Positions 118-10,219 of a stretch of 10,219 nt of DNA are shown in pieces. The position numbers and the translations under genes were made by a program. Positions within the stretch are counted from its first letter, which is position 1, and each line of letters begins with the position of its first letter. This DNA is from a virus, in UHGV virus genome UHGV-0275486. One strand, written 5' to 3'. The notes beneath the pieces were generated by a model, which worked only from the letters and a program-made list of their open reading frames with translations, was not told the DNA's origin and searched no databases.

Positions 118-587
118 CCCTTAAGTTAGCGCTTATGGGAGAAATCCCCGCAACCTCTGATGTATTATGCATCCTCAACGCAGCCACAGTTAACCTGATT
201 GGCGGGTTTATTTCATCTGTAAATATATTTATAAAAATAATGCCCACGCACAGCATAAAACAAAAAGTATTACAGATAAAAAAGGAACGTAATGTGCAGA
301 TTTGTTGTTTTCCATATTTACTCACCTTAATATGATTAACCCTGATAGGGTTGTTATTTCAGCGGTTTTCAAATGAGATATTATGGTGATCTGGCAGATT
401 TGCATAACATTAAAATTTAATTTGTTTAACCGCTTTTAATAATAAGCGTTGTTTGTATCCCAGCAATCTGTTGTTTGGTTTTTATTCCATTAAGGTGGGG
501 CTTTACACTGGAGCCAGTTTATTTATACTTCATACGTCAGCCTGAACAACTGGCATCTGCTGCGCTGCGCCATCGAGAGATTAAGAA

Positions 588-1187
588 ATGGCGCATATAC
601 AACTGGTCAAACAAACCTCTTCCGGATTACTTCTCCCGGCGACGCCGGAGAGTTGTGATTTTCTGCATCAAATCAAAATAGGCGAGTGGATACACGCAGA
701 CTTTAAGCGTGTGCGTAACTACGCATTCCACAAGCGTTTTTTCAAACTCCTGCAACTGGGATTCGATTACTGGACTCCGGTCGGTGGGGCGATCACGCCA
801 CGCGAACGAGAACTGCTGTCTGGTTTCGTTGATTACCTGTGCGAATCAGTTGGTCGGGAACACACGCCAGCCCTGAGTGAGGCCGCAGAGCAATATCTGA
901 ATACAGTTGCGACACGCAGAACCCGGGATACGGCATTGCTAAAGTCGTTTGAGGCTTTTCGCGAGTGGGTAACCATTCAGGCTGGATTTTACACCGAACA
1001 TTTTTATCCGGACGGTAGCCATGGGCGTCGGGCGAAATCCATCGCGTTTGCGAATATGGACGAAACCGAGTTTCAGCAGGTTTATAAATCTGTTCTGAAT
1101 GTGCTGTGGAACTGGATTCTGTTCCGTAAATTCTCCTCTCAGGAGGAAGTTGAAAATGTGGCCGCACAACTACTGGAGTTTGCGTAA
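588..1187 (+). CDS. lambdoid nin-region protein, DUF1367-like (family assignment from memory)
   Basis: 199-aa ORF with ATG start and protein-like composition. Its TAA stop overlaps the next gene's ATG (TAATG at 1185-1189), indicating translational coupling. It sits directly upstream of a YbcO-like gene and Q, as in lambdoid nin regions. Confidence 0.7.
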   Translation: MAHIQLVKQTSSGLLLPATPESCDFLHQIKIGEWIHADFKRVRNYAFHKRFFKLLQLGFDYWTPVGGAITPRERELLSGFVDYLCESVGREHTPALSEAAEQYLNTVATRRTRDTALLKSFEAFREWVTIQAGFYTEHFYPDGSHGRRAKSIAFANMDETEFQQVYKSVLNVLWNWILFRKFSSQEEVENVAAQLLEFA

Positions 1188-1477
1188 TGGTGAATTTACG
1201 TAAAGCGGCTAAAGGCCAGATGTGCCAGATCAGAATCCCTGGCTACTGCAATCACAATCCCGAAACCTCTGTGCTGGCGCATTACAGGCTGGCGGGGACG
1301 TGCGGAACAGCGACAAAACCACACGATATGCAGGCAGCGATTGCCTGTAGCTCATGCCACGATTTAATCGACGGGCGGGTAAAAACCAGCGATTACACCA
1401 AAGAAGAATTACGCCTGATGCATGCAGAAGGTGTTTTTCGCACACAAGAAATCTGGAGAAAGGAAGGTTATTTATGA
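1187..1477 (+). CDS. YbcO-like DUF1364 protein (Cys-rich, putative zinc-binding nin-region protein)
   Basis: 96-aa ORF (MVNLRKAAKGQMCQIRIPGYCNHNPETSVLAH...IACSSCHDLIDGR) with paired Cys motifs and the same length as the E. coli DLP12 YbcO protein, which it closely resembles from memory. Start overlaps the upstream stop; its own stop overlaps the next start (ATGA at 1474-1477). Confidence 0.75.
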   Translation: MVNLRKAAKGQMCQIRIPGYCNHNPETSVLAHYRLAGTCGTATKPHDMQAAIACSSCHDLIDGRVKTSDYTKEELRLMHAEGVFRTQEIWRKEGYL

Positions 1478-2016
1478 TTTACCCAACAAATACAGGCAAA
1501 AGCGGGGAACACCTTCGTCTCACCACGCTGGAAAGTGTCTGGATTCAGGGAAAACTGCGCATGTGGGGGCGCTGGTCGTATATTGGCGGCGGTAAGACGG
1601 GAAATATGTTTAACCAGTTGCTGGCATCCAAAAAATTGACGAAAACAGCCGTCAATGAAGCCCTGCGCAGGATGAAAAAAGCGGGAATAGAGAAACCTGA
1701 GCTGGAAGCGTTTTTGCGAGAGATGATCAATAGCAAGCAAAAGACCTGGCTGGCGCATTGTACTGATGCAGAGGCGTTATGTATTGATAGAGTCATAAGT
1801 GAGGTGCTGGCAAAACACCCAGGATTGATTTGTATCCTCCGGCAACGATATGAAGGGAGGGGGATGACTAAGCGTAAAATGGCTGAATTGCTGAATGATG
1901 CACATCCTGAGTGGTGTTTTAGCACATGCGAAAAGCGAATTGCTAATTGGTTAGCCGTTGCTGAATATGCCCTGTATATTCCCATGCGAGAATCATTTGC
2001 TCAAAAAATAGCTTGA
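1474..2016 (+). CDS. late-gene antitermination protein Q-like (QuuD/Phage_antitermQ type)
   Basis: 180-aa ORF starting at ATG 1474, preceded by GGAGAAAGGAAGG as ribosome-binding site and overlapping the upstream stop. Contains an RWG-W-type motif (KLRMWGRWSY) recalled from QuuD-like Q proteins. It is the last early-operon gene before a terminator, tRNAs and the lysis cassette. The 220-aa extension from 1354 lies inside the preceding gene and is not used. Confidence 0.65.
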   Translation: MIYPTNTGKSGEHLRLTTLESVWIQGKLRMWGRWSYIGGGKTGNMFNQLLASKKLTKTAVNEALRRMKKAGIEKPELEAFLREMINSKQKTWLAHCTDAEALCIDRVISEVLAKHPGLICILRQRYEGRGMTKRKMAELLNDAHPEWCFSTCEKRIANWLAVAEYALYIPMRESFAQKIA

Positions 2017-2099
2017 TTTTTTACGCATAAATTGCTTCAATTCCGGTATGCTTCGCAAAGCTGTATCGCGAGGCGAACCAAGCGCATGAACTTTACCAG

Positions 2100-2128
2100 A
2101 ACCCGCCATTGAGCGGGTTTTGTTGTTT
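2100..2128 (+). terminator. intrinsic terminator downstream of Q (candidate tR-prime-like element)
   Basis: 7-bp stem AACCCGC/GCGGGTT (2100-2106 and 2113-2119) with 6-nt loop CATTGA, followed directly by TTGTTGTTT. Confidence 0.5.
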
Positions 2129-2193
2129 CTGGGGGGGCATTTCGTTAAATGAAGCTGTGTTGTGCGCAATTAGCTAATAACACGAATCGTGAA

Positions 2194-2203
2194 TGTATAT
2201 AAT
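2194..2203 (+). promoter_or_regulatory. candidate -10 element (TG-TA-TATAAT) upstream of the tRNA pair
   Basis: Perfect TATAAT at 2198-2203 with TG at 2194-2195. No good -35 hexamer at 16-18 bp spacing, so this is a weak call. Confidence 0.2.
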
Positions 2204-2325
2204 GCGCTTGTTCCTTCGATGGTGTATTCGAATAACGGATTACTGAATACAGCTATCCCATTAAGGGAACACCGCCATCTTTTAAGTGGTAGGTGTGAGA
2301 TTCGATACCTCGGTGGCGGTTCTGT

Positions 2326-2401
<76 letters not shown>

Positions 2402-2404
2402 TAT

Positions 2405-2479
<75 letters not shown>

Positions 2480-2754
2480 GCATTTGAAATAAGCCTTATT
2501 GTATTGCAGCACTGGCGTATTTTTATTACGTGGGAGCAGGTTGTTTCGAAAAAGCATTCTGTTCTCTGGCTATGATTTGAGGCCAGGTGTAGCCTCAGTG
2601 CTGATTTTTTTACGGCAGCAGAATGGTGCATTATCGGTGGAGATTTTGTATTTCCTGGCAGGGCCGGTGATGTGCCATCCCGATGTTGTAAACATCGCTA
2701 AAAATGACATTGAGATTAATCATATACTAAGCAAAACCTGGAAATACATCCTTT

Positions 2755-2780
2755 ACCGCCTCCACCGGGCGGTTTTTTTT
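2755..2780 (+). terminator. intrinsic terminator
   Basis: Stem ACCGCC (2755-2760) / GGCGGT (2768-2773) with loop TCCACCG, then a run of eight T (2773-2780). Confidence 0.55.
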
Positions 2781-3103
2781 ATTCTGAACCCTAAAAAAAG
2801 AAACACGGACACTGATAATGCCCGTGTGGCAATGCCATGTAAGTTAGCGATGAATATGGCGCAAAAAAAGCGCGGCCGTCGGATTAACGCCGCGGGACAA
2901 AGTCCATGAAGAATCATAAGTATTGGCCCCCTTCTGGGGACATGTTCATACTACTAAGCTTCAGAAGTGGTTTAAATCATCAAATTAACCTTAATTTTCG
3001 ATAAGTCTTATTTCATTTCTTTGCGCCACATCTGGCGCGCATCAAATAACGCCACGCAAAGGGCATCTGCGGATGCCGGTGCTTTTGACGGGGTGTTTTT
3101 TAC

Positions 3104-3125
3104 GGGCCGCTGGTGGCCATTTTTT
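3104..3125 (+). terminator. small intrinsic terminator-like hairpin just upstream of the holin gene
   Basis: GGCC(G)/(T)GGCC stem (3105-3109 with 3114-3118), 4-nt loop, then A and six T (3120-3125). It lies about 40 nt before the holin start and could alternatively be a structure regulating holin translation. Confidence 0.4.
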
Positions 3126-3165
3126 GTTTCCATTACACAGCGCCCGCATCTGCGAGGTGGGGGTT

Positions 3166-3381
3166 ATGAAATCCATGGATAAGTTAACAACGGGTGTCGC
3201 CTATGGCACCTCCGCAGGCAGTGCTGGCTACTGGTTTTTACAGTTGCTCGATAGAGTCACGCCCTCACAGTGGGCAGCAATAGGTGTGCTGGGTAGTCTG
3301 GTGTTTGGCCTGTTGACGTATCTGACAAATCTTTATTTCAAGATTAAAGAAGATAAGCGTAAGGCTGCACGGGGAGAGTAA
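3166..3381 (+). CDS. S: class II holin, phage 21 S-type pinholin, with dual-start motif
   Basis: 71 aa from ATG 3166 ([29 protein letters not shown]...[11 protein letters not shown]), close to the phage 21 S protein as recalled and the same length. Met1 and Met4 give the antiholin/holin dual start. GAGGTGGGGG precedes the start. The upstream in-frame extension from 3073 runs across the terminator hairpin and is not used. Confidence 0.9.
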
Positions 3382-3385
3382 TTCA

Positions 3386-3730
3386 ATGACTCAAAACTAT
3401 GAACTGATTGTGAAAGGGATCCGCAATTTTGAGAATAAAGTTACGGTAACTTTAGCGTTACGGGACAAAAAACGCTTTGACGGTGAAATTTTAGACCTGG
3501 ACATCTCGCTGGACCGTGTTGAAGGTGCCGCGCTGGAGTTTTATGAGGCAGCAGCCAGAAGAAGCATCAGACAGGTCTTCCTGGATGTTGCTGCCGGGTT
3601 ATGTGAAGGGGATGAGCAGTCACCGGAAAAGCGCCCCATAATTTTAGAGGCGCAGGGTGTGTGGATAACCTACAAAGGAAAACTGCCGGGAAGAATTACT
3701 GGTTCACTGAAGACTCCGCCGAAATGGTAA
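3386..3730 (+). CDS. DUF1327 / YdfR-like protein inserted between holin and endolysin
   Basis: 114-aa ORF starting 5 nt after the holin stop, with GGGGAGAG 7 nt upstream of the ATG. Hydrophilic protein resembling, from memory, the Qin prophage YdfR family, which also sits between holin and endolysin genes. Confidence 0.6.
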   Translation: MTQNYELIVKGIRNFENKVTVTLALRDKKRFDGEILDLDISLDRVEGAALEFYEAAARRSIRQVFLDVAAGLCEGDEQSPEKRPIILEAQGVWITYKGKLPGRITGSLKTPPKW

Positions 3731-3968
3731 TTTCACCAGCATATTTTTCTTCCAGTAATACCGCCAGCCACTTGAAAGAATTTTGTTGTTGCTGGGACCA
3801 TTTGGGGTTGAGTGATTCAAGCTGGAGCGATGCCAGTGTTGGTTGCATTTGTTCCTTGGGAATTGAGAATGCCAGATATGAAAATGCGACAGTAAGGGCA
3901 TTTACATCATCCCGAAGCCTGGAAATGCAGTCGAGCAACTCCTGTAGAGAAATGGTGCTATTGTCCAT
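3696..3968 (-). CDS. hypothetical protein on the antisense strand inside the lysis cassette
   Basis: 90-aa ORF with a strong ribosome-binding site on the minus strand (AGAGAGGA, 7-nt spacer, ATG). Composition is helical and protein-like, unlike the overlapping + strand ORF 3661-3993. Its 3-prime end overlaps the DUF1327 gene by 35 nt. No homologue recognised. Confidence 0.4.
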   Translation of the reverse strand: MDNSTISLQELLDCISRLRDDVNALTVAFSYLAFSIPKEQMQPTLASLQLESLNPKWSQQQQNSFKWLAVLLEEKYAGEITISAESSVNQ

Positions 3969-4073
3969 AAATAATCCTCTCTATTGTATTTAACTATTCC
4001 TTGCCTGATTCAACAGGCCGGGACAGATAAACATATCCAGGGTTCAGAAACCGATAAATCCTGATAAATATCC

Positions 4074-4607
4074 ATGAACGCAAAAATCAGATACGGCCTG
4101 TCGGCTGCCGTTCTGGCACTGATTGCCGTCGGTGCGCCTGCGCCTGATATTCTCGACCAGTTTCTGGATGAAAAAGAAGGTAACCACACAACGGCATACC
4201 GCGATGGTTCCGGTATATGGACCATCTGTCGTGGTGCCACAATGGTGGATGGTAAGCCCGTCATACCGGGAATGAGGCTGTCGAAGGAAAAATGCGACCA
4301 GGTTAACGCTATTGAACGTGATAAGGCGCTGGCATGGGTGGAGCGCAATATTAAAGTACCACTGACCGAACCACAGAAAGCGGGTATAGCGTCATTTTGT
4401 CCCTATAACATTGGCCCCGGTAAGTGTTTCCCGTCGACGTTTTATAAGCGGCTGAATGCCGGTGATCGTAAGGGTGCATGCGAGGCGATTCGCTGGTGGA
4501 TAAAAGATGGTGGGCGCGATTGCCGCATACGTTCAAATAACTGCTATGGACAGGTTATTCGTCGTGACCAGGAAAGCGCATTAGCCTGTTGGGGGATAGA
4601 TCAGTGA
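4074..4607 (+). CDS. R: SAR endolysin (lysozyme with N-terminal signal-anchor-release domain)
   Basis: 177 aa. The N-terminus ([17 protein letters not shown]) is a weakly hydrophobic Gly/Ala-rich segment typical of SAR domains. It is followed by the lysozyme catalytic spacing E-x8-D-x5-T ([16 protein letters not shown]). A SAR endolysin is the expected partner of a pinholin. Confidence 0.9.
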
Positions 4608-5068
4608 GCAGAGTCGCCGCGATTATTTATGCTCTGGTTATCTGCATCATCGTCTGCCTGTCATGGGCTGTTAATCATTACCGTGATAACGCCACCGCCT
4701 ACAAAGAGCAGCGCGACAAAAATGCCAGAGAACTGAAGCTGGCGAACGCGGCAATTACTGACATGCAGATGCGTCAGCGTGATGTTGCTGCGCTCGATGC
4801 AAAATACACGAAGGAGTTAGCTGATGCGAAAGCTGAAAATGATGCTCTGCGTGATGATGTTGCCGCTGGTCGTCGTCGGTTGCACATCAAAGCAGTCTGT
4901 CAGTCAGTGCGTGAAGCCACCACCGCCTCCGGCGTGGATAATGCAGCCTCCCCCCGACTGGCAGACACCGCTGAACGGGATTATTTCACCCTCCGGGAAC
5001 GACTGGTAATGATGCAGGCCCAACTTGAAGGTGCTCAGCAATACATAACCGAACAGTGTTTAAAGTAA
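4604..5068 (+). CDS. Rz: i-spanin Rz
   Basis: GTG start at 4604 overlapping the endolysin stop (GTGA). The N-terminus ([29 protein letters not shown]) is a transmembrane segment, followed by a coiled-coil region. Close to lambda Rz as recalled. The ORF track's TTG at 4589 is an upstream in-frame alternative. Confidence 0.9.
4824..5009 (+). CDS. Rz1: o-spanin Rz1 (lipoprotein embedded in the +1 frame of Rz)
   Basis: 61 aa ([24 protein letters not shown]...[15 protein letters not shown]) with a lipobox ending in Cys and a proline-rich body. AAGGAG lies 7 nt upstream of the ATG. Lies wholly within Rz, as in lambda. Confidence 0.85.
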
Positions 5069-5205
5069 AATCTTAACTACAATATGATTCATTTTGATGA
5101 TTGTTTCATAAGGAACAGTGAAGTAAGATCTAAGAGGAGTTAAATTTTATACAGTATAATCATAATATTGCAGCAAGGTGGTTATAATTGAAAGAATATT
5201 TAGAT

Positions 5206-6663
5206 ATGAATACATCTCATGTAAGAGTTGTTACTCATATGTGTGGGTTCCTGGTTTGGCTCTATAGTCTTTCAATGTTGCCACCAATGGTTGTAGCATT
5301 GTTTTATAAAGAAAAAAGCCTGTTCGTTTTCTTTATAACTTTCGTTATATTTTTTTGCATTGGTGGCGGAGCGTGGTATACAACTAAGAAATCTGGCATT
5401 CAATTACGTACCCGTGATGGGTTTATTATAATTGTAATGTTTTGGATTTTGTTTTCTGTTATTAGTGCATTCCCTTTATGGATTGACTCAGAACTTAATT
5501 TAACGTTCATTGATGCTCTGTTTGAAGGGGTTTCTGGAATAACAACAACAGGAGCAACTGTAATTGATGATGTTAGTTCATTACCTCGGGCATATTTGTA
5601 CTATCGGTCACAGTTAAATTTTATAGGTGGTTTAGGAGTTATTGTTCTGGCGGTTGCTGTATTGCCATTATTGGGTATTGGTGGTGCAAAGCTTTATCAG
5701 TCAGAAATGCCGGGGCCATTTAAGGATGACAAACTCACTCCCCGCCTGGCCGATACGTCACGGACACTGTGGATAACTTATTCTTTATTAGGTATTGCTT
5801 GTATTGTCTGTTATAGACTTGCAGGAATGCCTTTGTTTGATGCTATTTGTCACGGGATTTCCACAGTTTCGCTTGGTGGTTTCTCAACTCATAGCGAGAG
5901 TATCGGATATTTTAATAACTATTTGGTTGAGCTGGTGGCTGGTTCTTTTTCCCTGCTATCGGCTTTCAACTTCACTCTTTGGTATATTGCTATTAGCAGG
6001 AAAACGATAAAACCTTTAATCAGAGATATTGAACTTCGTTTCTTTCTGTTAATAGCCTTAGGGGTGATCATTGTTACCTCTTTCCAGGTCTGGCATATAG
6101 GTATGTATGACTTGCATGGAAGTTTTATTCATTCGTTTTTTCTTGCCAGCTCCATGCTCACTGATAATGGTTTAGCTACGCAGGATTATGCAAACTGGCC
6201 CACGCACACGATAGTGTTTTTGCTGTCGTCAAGTTTCTTTGGGGGATGTATAGGTTCAACTTGTGGTGGAATTAAGTCACTTCGATTTCTTATACTTTTC
6301 AAACAAAGCAAACACGAGATAAATCAGCTTTCTCATCCCAGAGCGTTGTTGAGTGTAAATGTAGGAGGGAAGATAGTTACAGATCGTGTAATGAGGTCTG
6401 TATGGAGTTTCTTTTTTCTTTATACTCTCTTCACGGTGTTTTTTATACTGGTGTTAAATGGTATGGGATATGATTTTCTTACATCATTTGCAACAGTGGC
6501 TGCATGTATTAATAATATGGGATTAGGTTTTGGGGCTACTGCATCGTCATTCGGAGTGCTTAATGACATTGCAAAATATTTAATGTGCATAGCTATGATT
6601 CTTGGTCGCCTTGAAATTTATCCTGTTATTATATTGTTTTCAGGTTTTTTTTGGCGCTCCTAA
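5206..6663 (+). CDS. trkG: Trk-system potassium uptake protein TrkG (TrkH/TrkG family membrane protein)
   Basis: 485 aa from ATG 5206 (491 aa from TTG 5188). Multiple transmembrane segments and the conserved TrkH-family motifs (GITTTGATV, LYQSEMPGP, GGCIGSTCGGIK). Markedly AT-rich compared with its flanks. Matches the trkG gene of the K-12 Rac prophage as recalled, in the same position after Rz/Rz1. Confidence 0.9.
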   Translation: MNTSHVRVVTHMCGFLVWLYSLSMLPPMVVALFYKEKSLFVFFITFVIFFCIGGGAWYTTKKSGIQLRTRDGFIIIVMFWILFSVISAFPLWIDSELNLTFIDALFEGVSGITTTGATVIDDVSSLPRAYLYYRSQLNFIGGLGVIVLAVAVLPLLGIGGAKLYQSEMPGPFKDDKLTPRLADTSRTLWITYSLLGIACIVCYRLAGMPLFDAICHGISTVSLGGFSTHSESIGYFNNYLVELVAGSFSLLSAFNFTLWYIAISRKTIKPLIRDIELRFFLLIALGVIIVTSFQVWHIGMYDLHGSFIHSFFLASSMLTDNGLATQDYANWPTHTIVFLLSSSFFGGCIGSTCGGIKSLRFLILFKQSKHEINQLSHPRALLSVNVGGKIVTDRVMRSVWSFFFLYTLFTVFFILVLNGMGYDFLTSFATVAACINNMGLGFGATASSFGVLNDIAKYLMCIAMILGRLEIYPVIILFSGFFWRS

Positions 6664-6749
6664 TATATGGCTGATTTATAATTGTGAGTTTAATATTATA
6701 TTGACTCACTCATTGATCCAATACCTAACTTTACCAGCAACACCTCCGC

Positions 6750-6784
6750 CCCCAGTAGCACTGGCTGCTGGGGTGCGTTTTATT
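6750..6784 (+). terminator. possible terminator downstream of trkG
   Basis: CCCCAG (6750-6755) / CTGGGG (6768-6773) stem with a 12-nt loop, followed by TGCGTTTTATT. The T-run is interrupted and the loop is long, so this is a weak call. Confidence 0.3.
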
Positions 6785-6800
6785 CATAAAGCAAGGCTGT

Positions 6801-7592
6801 ATGAGCGAGAAATTAAAGATAGTCTATCGCCCATTACAAGAATTGTCACCGTATGCGCACAACGCCAGGACGCACAGTACTGAGCAGGTGGCACAACTGG
6901 TAGAAAGTATTAAGCAATTCGGCTGGACTAATCCGGTGCTGATTGACGAAAAGGGCGAAATTATTGCGGGTTACGGTCGTGTTATGGCGGCTGAAATGCT
7001 CAAAATGGATTCTGTTCCGGTCATTGTTCTGTCTGGCCTGACGGATGAGCAGAAAAAGGCGTACCGCCTGGCAGATAATCGCCTGCCGATGAATGCTGGC
7101 TGGGATGAAGATCTGTTGCGGATGGAGCTGTCGGACCTAATCAATGCTGATTTTGATGTCTCCCTGACAGGCTTCATCCCGACAGAAATTGATGAACTGT
7201 TGACGGATGTTTTGCCCGGTACAGGAAATGAGGAGGAGCCGTATACGACGAAAATTGATACGCCTGTTTATGAGCCGTCGGGCGGTAAACCGGATATCAG
7301 TGAACTGTACGACGATACGAAAACTCAGGAGCTGATCAGCCGGATACGTTCGGCGTCCCTTGAGCCTGATATTGAGAAATTCCTCCTGTGTGCGGCAGAA
7401 CGTCACACGGTGTTTAATTTCAGTAGAATTGCGGACTATTACGCTCACGCCCCCTCTGAAATTCAGTGTTTTTTCGAGGAGTCGGCGCTGGTGATCATTG
7501 ATTATCAGCAGGCTATTGAAAATGGATTTGTCCGGATGACGCAGCGCATGGTGGAGATCATGCATGGTGGTGAGGAGGAGGAATATGCGTGA
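6801..7592 (+). CDS. ParB/Srx-like N-terminal domain protein with acidic C-terminal region
   Basis: 263 aa. The N-terminus (PLQELSPYAHNARTHSTEQVAQLVESIKQFGWTNPVLIDEKGEIIAGYGRVMAA) has the ParB-like nuclease-domain pattern, including the Gly-x-x-Arg core. The C-terminal half is acidic and ends in EEEEYA. AAGG precedes the ATG. Confidence 0.75.
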   Translation: MSEKLKIVYRPLQELSPYAHNARTHSTEQVAQLVESIKQFGWTNPVLIDEKGEIIAGYGRVMAAEMLKMDSVPVIVLSGLTDEQKKAYRLADNRLPMNAGWDEDLLRMELSDLINADFDVSLTGFIPTEIDELLTDVLPGTGNEEEPYTTKIDTPVYEPSGGKPDISELYDDTKTQELISRIRSASLEPDIEKFLLCAAERHTVFNFSRIADYYAHAPSEIQCFFEESALVIIDYQQAIENGFVRMTQRMVEIMHGGEEEEYA

Positions 7593-8517
7593 TGATTTTT
7601 GCGCCTTTATTCTGACTCACGGGCGACCGGACAAAGTTCTGACTTACCGGACGTTGCGTCGTGCTGGCTATACCGGGAAAATTTTTATCGTTGTTGATGA
7701 TGAAGATAAGACACGGCATCAGTACATGGCTGAATTTGGTGAACAGGTGCTGGTGTTTTCCAAAGCCGATATCGCCAGTCGTTTTGACGAAGCCGATAAT
7801 TTCTGTGACCGCCGCTCAATTTTTTACGCCCGTAATGCCTGTTTCGACCTGGCAAAACTGGTCGGGTGTAAATACTTCATTCAGCTCGATGATGATTATC
7901 ACGAGTTCCAGTTTCGGGTGGATCGCAACTATGACCAGGCCTATTTTCCGATAAGGAAACTGGATGCGATCCTTTCTGAAATGCTGGCGTACTACGAATC
8001 AATACCTGCTCTTTCCATCGCTATGTCGCAGGGCGGGGATTTTCTTGGTGACAATGGCGGCCATGCTTCGTGGGTGAAACGCAAGGCAATGAACAGCTTT
8101 ATCTGTTCGGTTGATCGACCGTTCTCATTCATGGGGCGCATTAACGAGGATGTGAATACGTACACGAATCTCGGTCGCTGTGGTGAATTGTTTATGACGA
8201 TCGGTGCTGTCCAGTTAGGGCAGAAACAGACGCAGAAAAACAGCGGCGGAATGACCGAGCTGTATCTGGATTCCGGAACCTACGTTAAAAGTTTTTACTC
8301 CGTCATGTATGCGCCGTCGTGCGTAAAAATTTCACTGATGGGTGCCAGCCATAAACGCATTCACCATCAGGTCACCTGGAACAACGCTGCAGTAAAAATC
8401 CTTCACGAAAAATACAGGAAGAAGACACCCTGCATATCAATGGGGGTGACAAATGATTCCGTATTCGAAAGTCGAGTCTCTGGCAGCGTGCCGGATGACT
8501 GCACAACAAATCGCTGA
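7585..8517 (+). CDS. hypothetical protein with GT-A (family-2 glycosyltransferase-like) motif spacing
   Basis: 310 aa from ATG 7585, which follows GAGGAGGAGGA and overlaps the ParB-like stop (ATGCGTGA). The N-terminus has a beta-strand (CAFILTHGRPD), then IFIVVDDEDK about 30 residues later and FIQLDDDY about 55 residues after that. This matches the spacing of the DxD elements in GT-A folds such as SpsA as recalled. Function is inferred from motifs only. Confidence 0.55.
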   Translation: MRDDFCAFILTHGRPDKVLTYRTLRRAGYTGKIFIVVDDEDKTRHQYMAEFGEQVLVFSKADIASRFDEADNFCDRRSIFYARNACFDLAKLVGCKYFIQLDDDYHEFQFRVDRNYDQAYFPIRKLDAILSEMLAYYESIPALSIAMSQGGDFLGDNGGHASWVKRKAMNSFICSVDRPFSFMGRINEDVNTYTNLGRCGELFMTIGAVQLGQKQTQKNSGGMTELYLDSGTYVKSFYSVMYAPSCVKISLMGASHKRIHHQVTWNNAAVKILHEKYRKKTPCISMGVTNDSVFESRVSGSVPDDCTTNR

Positions 8518-8704
8518 CGTTCTGGATGTTGATCTGAACCGACTGAAAGAAAATCGGGAAGCAATGACAGATTTTTATGCGGCCATCCGTAAGGGCAGAG
8601 CGAAAGGTGAAGCCGAGTTACGAGCGGCATTGTTTAAGCTTGCCAGAAAAGGGGATGCCTTTGCTCTGCGCGAACTACTCAGGGTGGATAAAAATCAGGA
8701 CTAA
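8453..8704 (+). CDS. small hypothetical protein upstream of the small terminase (possible DNA-binding accessory protein)
   Basis: 83-aa ORF with GGGGGTGA 4 nt upstream of the ATG. Helical, basic, protein-like composition. Overlaps the end of the preceding gene by 65 nt and stops 3 nt before the terminase gene. Confidence 0.45.
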   Translation: MIPYSKVESLAACRMTAQQIADVLDVDLNRLKENREAMTDFYAAIRKGRAKGEAELRAALFKLARKGDAFALRELLRVDKNQD

Positions 8705-8707
8705 CTG

Positions 8708-9154
8708 ATGAGCAGACCGGACTGGGGGGCGTTGCAGCAGGAGTATATTGCTGAATACACCCGCTCCGGTATATCTCCGGTGGCATGGTGTGAAGCAAGG
8801 GGACTGAATTACGCAACAGCCCGTCGTTACATCAAAAAAACTCCGAAAAATGCGCAGACAGAAATGCGCAAAACTGCGCAAAAAAGTGCGCAGAAAAAAT
8901 CTGCGCAGACTGCACAAAAGCGGAACGAAAAATCTCAGGAAAAAAAGCCAGTATTCGATGCGGGCCTGAATGAGGGCGACGCGGAGGAATTTTCGTTCTG
9001 TCCCGATGATTTCGGCATTTCTGACCAGCAGGCTAAGTTTGCGATGCTTGTTGCTCAGGGTAAAAAGCCGACAGAGGCGTACCGACTATCTGGATTTTTT
9101 CAAAGGCGAGATAGGGAAAACCCATCTGGCTCAGGAGCTGTGGACGCAGATTGA
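8708..9154 (+). pseudogene. terminase small subunit, truncated at the 3-prime end and running into unrelated sequence
   Basis: The N-terminal 130 residues look like a small terminase: a helix-turn-helix-like segment (ISPVAWCEARGLNYATARRYIKK), a K/Q/A-rich linker, and the conserved [27 protein letters not shown] motif. After about nt 9097 the frame decays into an unrelated 18-residue tail ending at TGA 9152-9154. Another frame carries tail-protein J-like sequence from about 9084. Confidence 0.6.
8851..8916 (+). repeat. cluster of TGCGCA hexamers inside the small terminase gene
   Basis: TGCGCA at 8851, 8865, 8875, 8887 and 8902, plus TGCACA at 8911, spaced 9-15 bp. The region encodes the K/Q/A-rich linker. 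Confidence 0.5.
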
Positions 9155-9797
9155 TAACGGTCAGCTTGCGCCTGACCTGGCTGAAATCAGGACATCCATT
9201 ACGGATGTCAGCAATGAAATCACACAGACCGTCAATAAGAAACTGGAAGACCAGAGTGCAGCGATCCAGCAGATACAGAAGGTTCAGGTTGATACAAATA
9301 ATAACCTGAACAGCATGTGGGCCGTGAAACTGCAGCAGATGCAGGACGGACGCCTTTATATTGCGGGTATCGGTGCCGGTATTGAGAATACGCCAGCAGG
9401 AATGCAGAGTCAGGTGCTGCTGGCGGCAGACAGGATTGCGATGATTAATCCTGCGAATGGCAACACAAAGCCGATGTTTGTTGGTCAGGGTGATCAGATA
9501 TTCATGAACGACGTGTTCCTGAAACGCCTGACGGCTCCCACCATTACCAGCGGCGGTAATCCTCCTGCATTTTCCCTTACACCGGACGGGCGACTGACGG
9601 CGAAAAATGCGGATATCAGTGGCAGTGTGAATGCGAACGCCGGGACGCTCAACAATGTCACGATAAATGAAAACTGTCGGGTTCTGGGAAAACTGTCTGC
9701 GAACCAGATTGAAGGCGATCTCGTTAAAACAGTGGGCAAAGCTTTCCCCCGGGACTCCCGTGCACCGGAGCGGTGGCCATCAGGGACCATTACCTGA
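9084..9797 (+). pseudogene. C-terminal fragment of tail-tip / host-specificity protein J homologue
   Basis: From about 9084 the frame encodes sequence ([23 protein letters not shown]...[77 protein letters not shown]...) that closely matches the C-terminal region of lambda J as recalled. There is no J N-terminus, which would be about 900 aa. The frame stops at TGA 9795-9797, before where lambda J ends. Confidence 0.6.
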
Positions 9798-9835
9798 GTA
9801 TACGCCGTTTAGGGCCAACCGGGCTAATCAATAGC

Positions 9836-10219
9836 ATGCAAATGCGTTACGGCCTGGTTAAAGATGATGGCTTTATTGAGGTTTGGGCCTTCCAGCGTGC
9901 ATTTATCAACGGCGCAAAGGTTGCGGTACTGGCGCAGACGGCACGCACGGAATTATACATTCCAGACGGATTTGTTAAGCAAACCGCCGCGCCTTCTGGA
10001 TATGTTGAAAGCCCCGTTGTAAGGATTTACGACCAGTTAAACAAGCCGACTAAAGCAGATTTGGGCCTTGAAAATGCGATGCTTACAGGCGCTTTCGGTC
10101 TTGGCGGTAGCGGGATATCAACAAACGGCAAGATGAGCGATGTAGAGATCTTAAAAGCTCTGCGTGACAAAGGTGGTCATTTCTGGCGCGGTGATAAGCC
10201 GACCGGAAGCACGGCGACC
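9836..10219 (+). CDS. hypothetical protein, 5-prime part only (runs off the window)
   Basis: A different + frame from the J fragment is open from 9728 to the window end, with the first ATG at 9836 (MQMRYGLVKDDGFIEVWAFQRAF...). No strong ribosome-binding site and no recognised homologue. It may be a frame-shifted continuation of the tail-fibre region or a separate gene. Confidence 0.3.
   Translation, partial: MQMRYGLVKDDGFIEVWAFQRAFINGAKVAVLAQTARTELYIPDGFVKQTAAPSGYVESPVVRIYDQLNKPTKADLGLENAMLTGAFGLGGSGISTNGKMSDVEILKALRDKGGHFWRGDKPTGSTAT

Follow-up and report, generated by a model that had tools for sequence, protein, structure and literature searches.

Organization of the trkG locus

The trkG gene occupies positions 5188–6663 (+ strand) of a 10,219-nt stretch of viral DNA, UHGV virus genome UHGV-0275486, which we refer to in its entirety as the window. 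Counted from a TTG codon, the gene comprises 491 codons and encodes the K+-translocating membrane subunit of the Trk system, a protein of the TrkH family. The window comes from E. coli and holds the remnant of a Rac-type lambdoid prophage at the Rac site. Positions 565–10219 are 99.9% identical to E. coli strain EcPNK006. In that genome, the sequence next to this region consists of tail-fibre remnants, then a diguanylate cyclase gene, then uspF and ompN, which identifies the Rac site. The gene order starts with DUF1367, YbcO, a Q-like antiterminator, tRNA-Thr, tRNA-Gly, holin, YdfR, lysozyme, and Rz/Rz1, and reaches trkG; it proceeds with a ParB-like gene, a TAGT-type glycosyltransferase-like gene, a small terminase-related ORF, and a terminase-small fragment that is fused to a tail-tip (J-like) fragment. 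An Rfam scan returned the two tRNAs only, with no match in the AT-rich flanks of trkG.

The slot that holds trkG is bordered by two phage genes. Upstream, the Rz gene (4604–5068, + strand; Pfam Phage_lysis, 178 bits), which encodes the i-spanin and contains the embedded Rz1 (4824–5009), is the end of the lysis cassette; RefSeq annotates these genes as ‘lysis protein’ and rzoD. The downstream border is the ParB-like nuclease-domain gene (6801–7592, + strand; Pfam ParB_N, phrog_620), a full-length version of ynaK. The initial annotation had placed trkG between Rz/Rz1 and the packaging genes, and this placement is seen in the window as well as in the more complete phage record ON470595, which reads holin, lysozyme, spanin, trkG, ParB, two hypothetical genes, terminase small, terminase large, portal, and coat. 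The order in ON470595 confirms that trkG is positioned between the lysis and packaging modules. Ten deposited phage records contain trkG at 99% identity, and the same ten carry the ynaK module. A ynaK-to-terS module lacking trkG was not found in the phage collection, where all matches were these ten trkG-bearing records, and no contiguous match to the Rz 3′ end joined directly to the ynaK 5′ end (in the alleles present here) was found among 5,426 complete E. coli genomes. As these searches yielded no empty site without trkG, the designation of trkG as a moron is based on its composition and position.

An AT-rich leader (5069–5187, + strand) connects the Rz stop codon to the trkG start, with a GC content of about 0.255, the same figure as for 5069–5205. 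The leader contains a TATAAT at 5155–5160, a candidate −10 element that is retained upstream of trkG in E. albertii and E. fergusonii, and promoter activity has been reported for the trkG upstream fragment (PMC9898762). Sigma-70 promoter and terminator consensus scans over 4900–6950 gave matches at, and not above, shuffled expectation. The gene is on the strand of the late genes, and the consensus scan identified no terminator-like site between Rz and trkG. Downstream, a pattern match at 6750–6783 (+ strand) describes a terminator-like GC-rich hairpin followed by a T-run, with a 10-bp stem, seven GC pairs, and the tail TGCGTTTTAT. This hairpin, between trkG and the ParB-like gene, sits where the GC content regains the phage level.

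Identity of the trkG product

The product matches the Pfam TrkH profile PF02386 with 480.5 bits (E = 6.6e-144; cut-off 27) in a profile search. The match is full-length, aligning residues 40–483 to profile positions 3–500 of 502. Four glycine-containing pore-loop motifs are found at the expected spacing, namely TTTGAT at 113, GGFST at 224, TDNGL at 319, and NNMGLG at 436, an assignment made on motif presence. Residue 327 is an aspartate, in the context TDNGLATQDYANW. Asp327, five residues past the third pore-loop glycine, is a feature of the Na+-dependent TrkG subtype (Tanudjaja et al. 2022, PMC9898762). Judged from its sequence, the protein is thus a TrkH/TrkG family member in which each defining feature looked for at this level was present, and the gene at 5188–6663 is E. 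coli trkG, in essence the allele found in K-12, here within a less eroded Rac prophage. The gene is present and annotated in 1,552 of the 5,426 complete E. coli genomes (~29%) and absent from the remaining ~71%; 1,525 E. coli records carry the trkG annotation at 99–100% identity.

Base composition and origin of trkG

The GC content of trkG is 0.381, compared with 0.482 for the rest of the window (z = −7.7), and every other gene in the window falls between 0.464 and 0.570. This bears out the first impression of a gene far AT-richer than the phage genes on either side. The 1,732-nt stretch with the lowest GC anywhere in the window begins at 5002, and the change points of the cumulative GC curve lie at ~5039 and ~6733. 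A profile of GC and codon usage had been proposed as a check, and once computed it revealed a composition that is not uniform across the window. Codon bias, gauged by GC3 and rare-codon fractions, deviates most at the third position, where trkG has a GC3 of 0.325 versus a pooled 0.519 (z = −8.6). The first and second positions are low as well (GC1 0.420, GC2 0.399). The gene is enriched in A/T-ending and rare codons (ATA, TTA, AGA/AGG), a trait that some small phage genes have in common with it.

Chromosomal paralogues of the TrkG clade place this composition in perspective. Full-length relatives with 67–79% identity are found in E. fergusonii, Citrobacter, Pectobacterium, Pantoea, Enterobacter, Leclercia, Cronobacter, and Rahnella, all outside prophages, in unrelated neighbourhoods, and with GC contents of 0.42–0.61 that track those of the host and flanking sequences. 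The E. fergusonii gene lies between porin genes and an hchA-like gene, the Pectobacterium gene follows ychF, the Enterobacter and Leclercia genes reside between ygiQ-like and ftsP-like genes, and the relative in one contig adjoins kdpA. These relatives are ordinary chromosomal genes with host-like GC, which makes trkG a host-type paralogue and its phage-borne allele the compositional outlier. The E. albertii trkG (92% protein and 84% DNA identity; GC 0.383) occupies another chromosomal site, flanked by yebY and a pphA-like gene. Upstream of it, ~40 nt from the 3′ end of Rz are retained, which indicates that this copy also descended from a phage-borne cassette.

A membrane protein could in principle be AT-rich by virtue of its amino-acid composition, or by local drift, and not by foreign origin. 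TrkG contains many Phe, Ile, and Leu residues, whose codons are T/A-rich, and the low GC1 and GC2 would fit such a bias. This explanation is barely credible given that the third position deviates most, that orthologues with the same protein composition have GC contents of 0.52–0.61 in Pantoea, Enterobacter, and Cronobacter, that the non-coding leader beside trkG has a GC content of 0.255, and that most E. coli genomes do not have the gene at all; GC3 and the high-GC orthologues effectively refute amino-acid bias as the cause of the low trkG GC. The alternative put forward at the outset, a host-type transporter acquired horizontally and carried as prophage cargo, agrees with the deviant composition, the patchy presence in E. 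coli genomes, the chromosomal relatives that track host GC, and the literature. Schlosser et al. 1991, as cited in PMC9898762, described the low GC of trkG (38% vs 53% for trkH), its location in Rac, and a phage-mediated acquisition, and Tanudjaja et al. 2022 (PMC9898762) restate the foreign origin, low GC, and Rac location. The status of trkG as foreign AT-rich cargo is therefore already known from 1991 and 2022.

Translation start of trkG

Signals in the window: Two in-frame codons compete for initiation. The ATG at 5206–5208 (+ strand) is annotated by RefSeq and UniProt and yields 485 residues. The TTG at 5188–5190 (+ strand) yields 491 residues, beginning MKEYLDMNTSH..., and is the probable true initiation codon. 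The initial annotation had observed that the ATG is without a good ribosome-binding site and that the TTG is located 6 nt past an AAGGTGG, and both observations hold. The Shine-Dalgarno (SD) sequence AAGGTGG (5175–5181, + strand) is separated from the TTG by the 6-nt spacer TTATAA. Pairing of the 16S anti-SD with the preceding 17 nt amounts to −7.7 kcal/mol for the TTG and just −0.9 kcal/mol for the ATG, which has no usable SD of its own; the strong SD lies 24 nt from the ATG, too distant to position it. An SD as good as AAGGTGG precedes 2.5% of the TTG/GTG triplets in the window.

Conservation: We compared 14 TrkG-clade loci, from E. coli, E. ruysiae, E. albertii, E. fergusonii, Citrobacter, Pectobacterium, two Pantoea, Rahnella, Enterobacter, Leclercia, Cronobacter, and two further contigs. 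Exactly 18 nt ahead of the Met-equivalent codon, 12 loci have TTG and the other two GTG, and none has ATG. A GGAG/GGTGG-type SD with a pairing energy of −5.7 to −10.6 kcal/mol precedes this TTG/GTG in all 14, a quality reached by 0.8–9.5% of the TTG/GTG triplets per locus. The 18-nt interval between the two codons contains no indels and no stops in any of the 14 loci, and the DNA upstream is otherwise unalignable. The chromosomal paralogues have the same TTG/GTG and SD position and the same length of the six-residue N-terminal segment. Within Escherichia, E. coli, E. ruysiae, E. albertii, and E. fergusonii all keep the TTG and the SD, even though their nucleotide sequences diverge by 16–28%. 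The Met-equivalent codon is ATG in Escherichia only and reads CTG, ATT, CTC, TTA, or GCA in the other loci.

Existing gene calls are divided. RefSeq and most NCBI entries give trkG at 485 aa. The long N-terminus is called in 26 of the 120 top homologues, ON470595 annotates a CDS of 1,476 nt (the 491-aa form), the 491-aa sequence is found among Logan gene calls, and the PHROG family profile has a length of 491, with the 485-aa form covering positions 7–491. The agreement of ab initio callers with the TTG start supports it. In Citrobacter, a 485-aa protein would need a CTG start and looks like the result of homology-propagated annotation. In Leclercia, the caller picked an upstream ATG with an SD of −1.9, and the conserved TTG with its SD of −5.7 is present. 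More distant relatives (a 486-aa group and Morganella) begin at or beside the ATG-equivalent position, which suggests that a 485-aa TrkG would probably function.

Predicted RNA structure: Folding of the E. coli start region predicts a hairpin in which 5177–5196, covering the SD and the TTG, pairs with 5268–5284, within codons 27–33. It has a z of −2.45, with three of 200 shuffles folding equally well, and its pairing partners shift with the 3′ end chosen. The predicted unpaired probability is 0.47 for the ATG and 0.00 for the TTG. Fold prediction did not find the hairpin in E. albertii or E. fergusonii. We rejected this weak, 3′-end-dependent, and E. coli-specific structure as evidence in either direction.

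Experimental evidence and alternatives: Tetracycline ribosome profiling (TetRP) in K-12 listed ‘ECK1362 trkG, shift −18, TTG, new site’, with the N-terminus MKEYLDMNTSH..., and read densities of 75/59/36 at the TTG versus 0/12/0 at the annotated ATG, where one replicate gave 11.8 (Nakahigashi et al. 2016). K-12 and the window are identical over 5069–5260, so the start region profiled in that work is the same as the one analyzed here. In the same study, lacZ fusions for trkG were inconclusive, with the top activity measured when both codons were mutated, and the N-terminal peptide column for trkG is blank in the TetRP table (Nakahigashi et al. 2016). The gene is not among the entries of the TRAINSPOTTER supplements. 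Four independent lines strengthen the earlier suggestion that TrkG may start six residues upstream of its annotated methionine, namely SD energetics, conservation across all 14 loci, the initiation profiling published for K-12, and the agreement of ab initio callers. We conclude that TTG 5188 is most likely the main start in vivo, giving a 491-aa protein.

Exclusive use of ATG 5206, with the upstream TTG and SD as a relic unused in Escherichia, would accommodate the prevailing database entries, the E. coli-specific fold that leaves the ATG more accessible, and the failure of the lacZ fusions to confirm the TTG. ATG is also intrinsically the stronger initiator of the two codons. We regard this reading as highly improbable, because the ATG is poorly paired with the anti-SD and 24 nt away from the strong SD, its TetRP densities are 0/12/0 against 75/59/36 for the TTG, and the TTG and SD are retained in four diverged Escherichia species. 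Production of both the 491-aa and the 485-aa proteoform from one mRNA is a less extreme proposal. The two codons are in frame and 18 nt apart in an AT-rich, weakly structured leader, a minor TetRP signal appeared at the ATG in one replicate, and the odd outcome of the lacZ fusions hints at a more complex initiation. This, too, is improbable for an ATG without an SD and with no TetRP signal in two of three replicates. Predominant initiation at TTG 5188 accounts best for these observations.

A broader evolutionary reading can be built on the same comparison, in which the TrkG clade was selected for a weak TTG/GTG start combined with a good SD, the 485-aa reference is wrong, and the ATG of Escherichia is a possible second, SD-independent proteoform or a regulatory switch. 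We consider this reading as a whole speculative and rather doubtful. In it, the weak conserved start codon may hold down the dosage of an ion-conducting subunit, and the proposed ATG proteoform or switch might involve the predicted E. coli-specific pairing of SD and TTG with codons 27–33.

Ribosome profiling had pointed to the upstream TTG as early as 2016; the increment of the present analysis is the comparative support, together with the observation that annotations still use and propagate the ATG. The reference entries P23849 and NP_415881.1 probably lack the first six residues of the protein. The correction matters for TrkG expression constructs, N-terminal tags, structural models, and start-site benchmarking sets, and the error has spread by homology, as illustrated by the one Citrobacter orthologue annotated with a CTG start.

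Proposed role as lysogenic-conversion cargo

Using the structural context and the published physiology, we propose a composite account of the locus. Identity, composition, context, SD energetics, and start conservation come from the present analysis, and transport, H-NS, and TetRP data are drawn from papers. The ancestor of trkG would be the paralogue that is widespread on Enterobacterales chromosomes, captured by a phage from a presumed low-GC donor, which would explain why the gene is much AT-richer than its surroundings. In the prophage, trkG is most likely cargo for lysogenic conversion, inserted in the manner of a moron where the lysis cassette ends and the ParB/terminase region begins. 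In the lysogen, its own leader would drive transcription at a low level, with the AT-richness of the gene making it a target of H-NS dampening, and upon induction, transcripts from the late promoter would presumably extend into it as well. The conserved weak start codon may limit how much of this ion-conducting membrane subunit is made. The AAGGTGG located 6 nt upstream would position the ribosome on TTG 5188 and direct synthesis of 491 residues, not the annotated 485, and the downstream ATG would be an Escherichia-specific Ile/Leu-to-Met substitution that misled annotation.

At the protein level, TrkG would form, together with TrkA and SapD of the host, a Na+-dependent route for the uptake of K+ (and Na+) that can back up TrkH. 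An ion transporter at this site may also affect phage–host physiology during infection, as the initial annotation suggested. The uptake role is modelled on the published properties of TrkG in the lysogen, which include Na+-dependent K+ uptake, Na+ uptake, partial repression by H-NS, and a backup function for TrkH (Tanudjaja et al. 2022, PMC9898762). K+ uptake was found to depend on TrkA and SapD and to be stimulated by Na+ for the K-12 allele, which is four residues off that of the window (PMC9898762). We assign a probability of roughly 0.78 to the full account, that is, to trkG as moron-like Rac cargo of horizontal origin translated from TTG 5188. The finding is real and ordinary, with both halves already published and a small annotation error as the likely addition. 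That a phage can deliver a working ion transporter of host type is illustrated here in textbook fashion, and the picture is otherwise unchanged.

Comparison with known systems

The closest counterpart is K-12 TrkG (b1363, NP_415881.1, UniProt P23849) in the cryptic prophage Rac, the same gene at the same prophage site. K-12 Rac and window positions 4631–7054 share 99.3% DNA identity across rzpR-trkG-ynaK. At the protein level, V262, S330, L341, and C458 of K-12 TrkG are replaced by A, N, S, and Y in the window, and D327 is found in both. The window prophage is less eroded, as it retains the Q-like gene, the tRNAs, holin, lysozyme, a full Rz, full-length ynaK, and a full glycosyltransferase-like gene, whereas in K-12 Rac, Rz is reduced to a fragment, ynaK and ydaY are truncated, and the deletions on both sides of trkG are heavier.

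TrkH, the Trk subunit encoded by the core genome of Enterobacteria, has the same Pfam family and architecture as TrkG, and TrkG is ~41% identical to Salmonella TrkH by tblastn. Both proteins are TrkA-dependent. By alignment, the TrkH N-terminus is presumably ~9 residues shorter than that of the 491-aa TrkG. The two systems differ in that TrkG requires Na+ and carries this ion as well, and in that trkH has a normal GC content of 53% (PMC9898762).

The lambda bor gene provides the positional parallel. Like trkG, bor sits directly after Rz/Rz1 and ahead of the packaging genes; both are lysogen-expressed genes of deviant composition and non-phage function. The initial annotation had placed trkG where lambda carries bor; the position matches, and the likeness is positional only. 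The bor gene is transcribed opposite to the late operon and encodes a small lipoprotein, whereas trkG is on the late-operon strand and is a 1.5-kb gene for a polytopic transporter.

A possible fold over the trkG start

The Shine-Dalgarno (SD) sequence and probable TTG start codon of trkG lie in a region (5177-5196) predicted to pair with 5268-5284, which corresponds to about codons 27-33 of the gene. The pairing segments are TTGAAAGA and TCTTTCAA, with a core of GGTGGT against GCCACC. The z-score of this fold is -2.45; the fold does not hold up when a different folding window is chosen, and it is not conserved in either E. albertii or E. fergusonii. The published trkG lacZ fusions (PMC4909307) were built without the downstream segment 5268-5284, and the fold might be relevant to their anomalous result, in which activity was highest with both candidate start codons mutated.

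For the Citrobacter sp. Awk 4 protein P0003 (L026 3943-3963, contig JANEWG010000080.1), the 485-aa NCBI annotation would have translation begin on CTG, whereas 18 nt upstream of it there is a TTG that has an SD; the annotated start looks like one carried over by homology from E. coli TrkG. Likewise, the start called in Leclercia (P0029, locus L039) is an ATG further upstream whose SD is poor.

Other occurrences of trkG and its clade

In E. albertii NBRC 107761, yebY and a pphA-like gene flank a diverged trkG (84% DNA identity). Upstream of this copy is a remnant of the Rz 3' end, and an adjoining ORF matches the caspase-inhibitor effector family NleF (E 6.9e-10). The segment (L004 5819-9043) is thus a small island of phage origin, located elsewhere than the Rac site. 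Plasmid-classed records account for 15 of the 1,559 trkG places found in complete E. coli genomes, and in strain E8 (NZ_CM180514.1) an IS1 insertion splits the gene. On one enterobacterial contig (L034 3956-7476), the high-affinity K+ uptake operon kdpFABC-kdpD adjoins a divergently oriented TrkG-clade gene.

Organization and state of the prophage

Positions 1 to ~565 are without a match in E. coli EcPNK006, whose genome is otherwise identical, and other strains align from position 137 onward. Ahead of the DUF1367 gene there is a second AT-rich region (151-600, GC 0.32-0.37). Two tRNA genes, tRNA-Thr(TGT) and tRNA-Gly(TCC) (2326-2479), each detected by both ARAGORN and Rfam, separate the Q-like antiterminator from the holin. 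A 90-aa minus-strand ORF (3696-3968), 'hypothetical' in RefSeq, is antisense to the 3' end of the YdfR-family gene; its match to phrog_2411 (198 bits) is full-length.

The segment 6801-8517 begins with a ParB-like gene that is full-length and encodes a nuclease domain (263 aa, phrog_620). After it comes a glycosyltransferase-like gene whose 310-317-aa product scores 122 bits against Pfam TAGT (TET-associated glycosyltransferase) and 348 bits against phrog_842 ('beta-glucosyl-HMC-alpha-glucosyltransferase'). The pair may have served the ancestral Rac-type phage as a DNA-modification module. Both copies are longer than those of K-12, where ynaK (87 aa) and ydaY (119 aa) are truncated remnants only.

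A short way downstream of this pair, an N-terminal fragment of the terminase small subunit (phrog_51) is joined directly to a tail-tip/J-like fibre fragment (phrog_2148; 8708-9797), both labelled partial in RefSeq. The prophage is defective because all head genes and most tail genes have been deleted, whereas the deposited phage record ON470595 retains the terminase large subunit, portal, and coat genes missing here.
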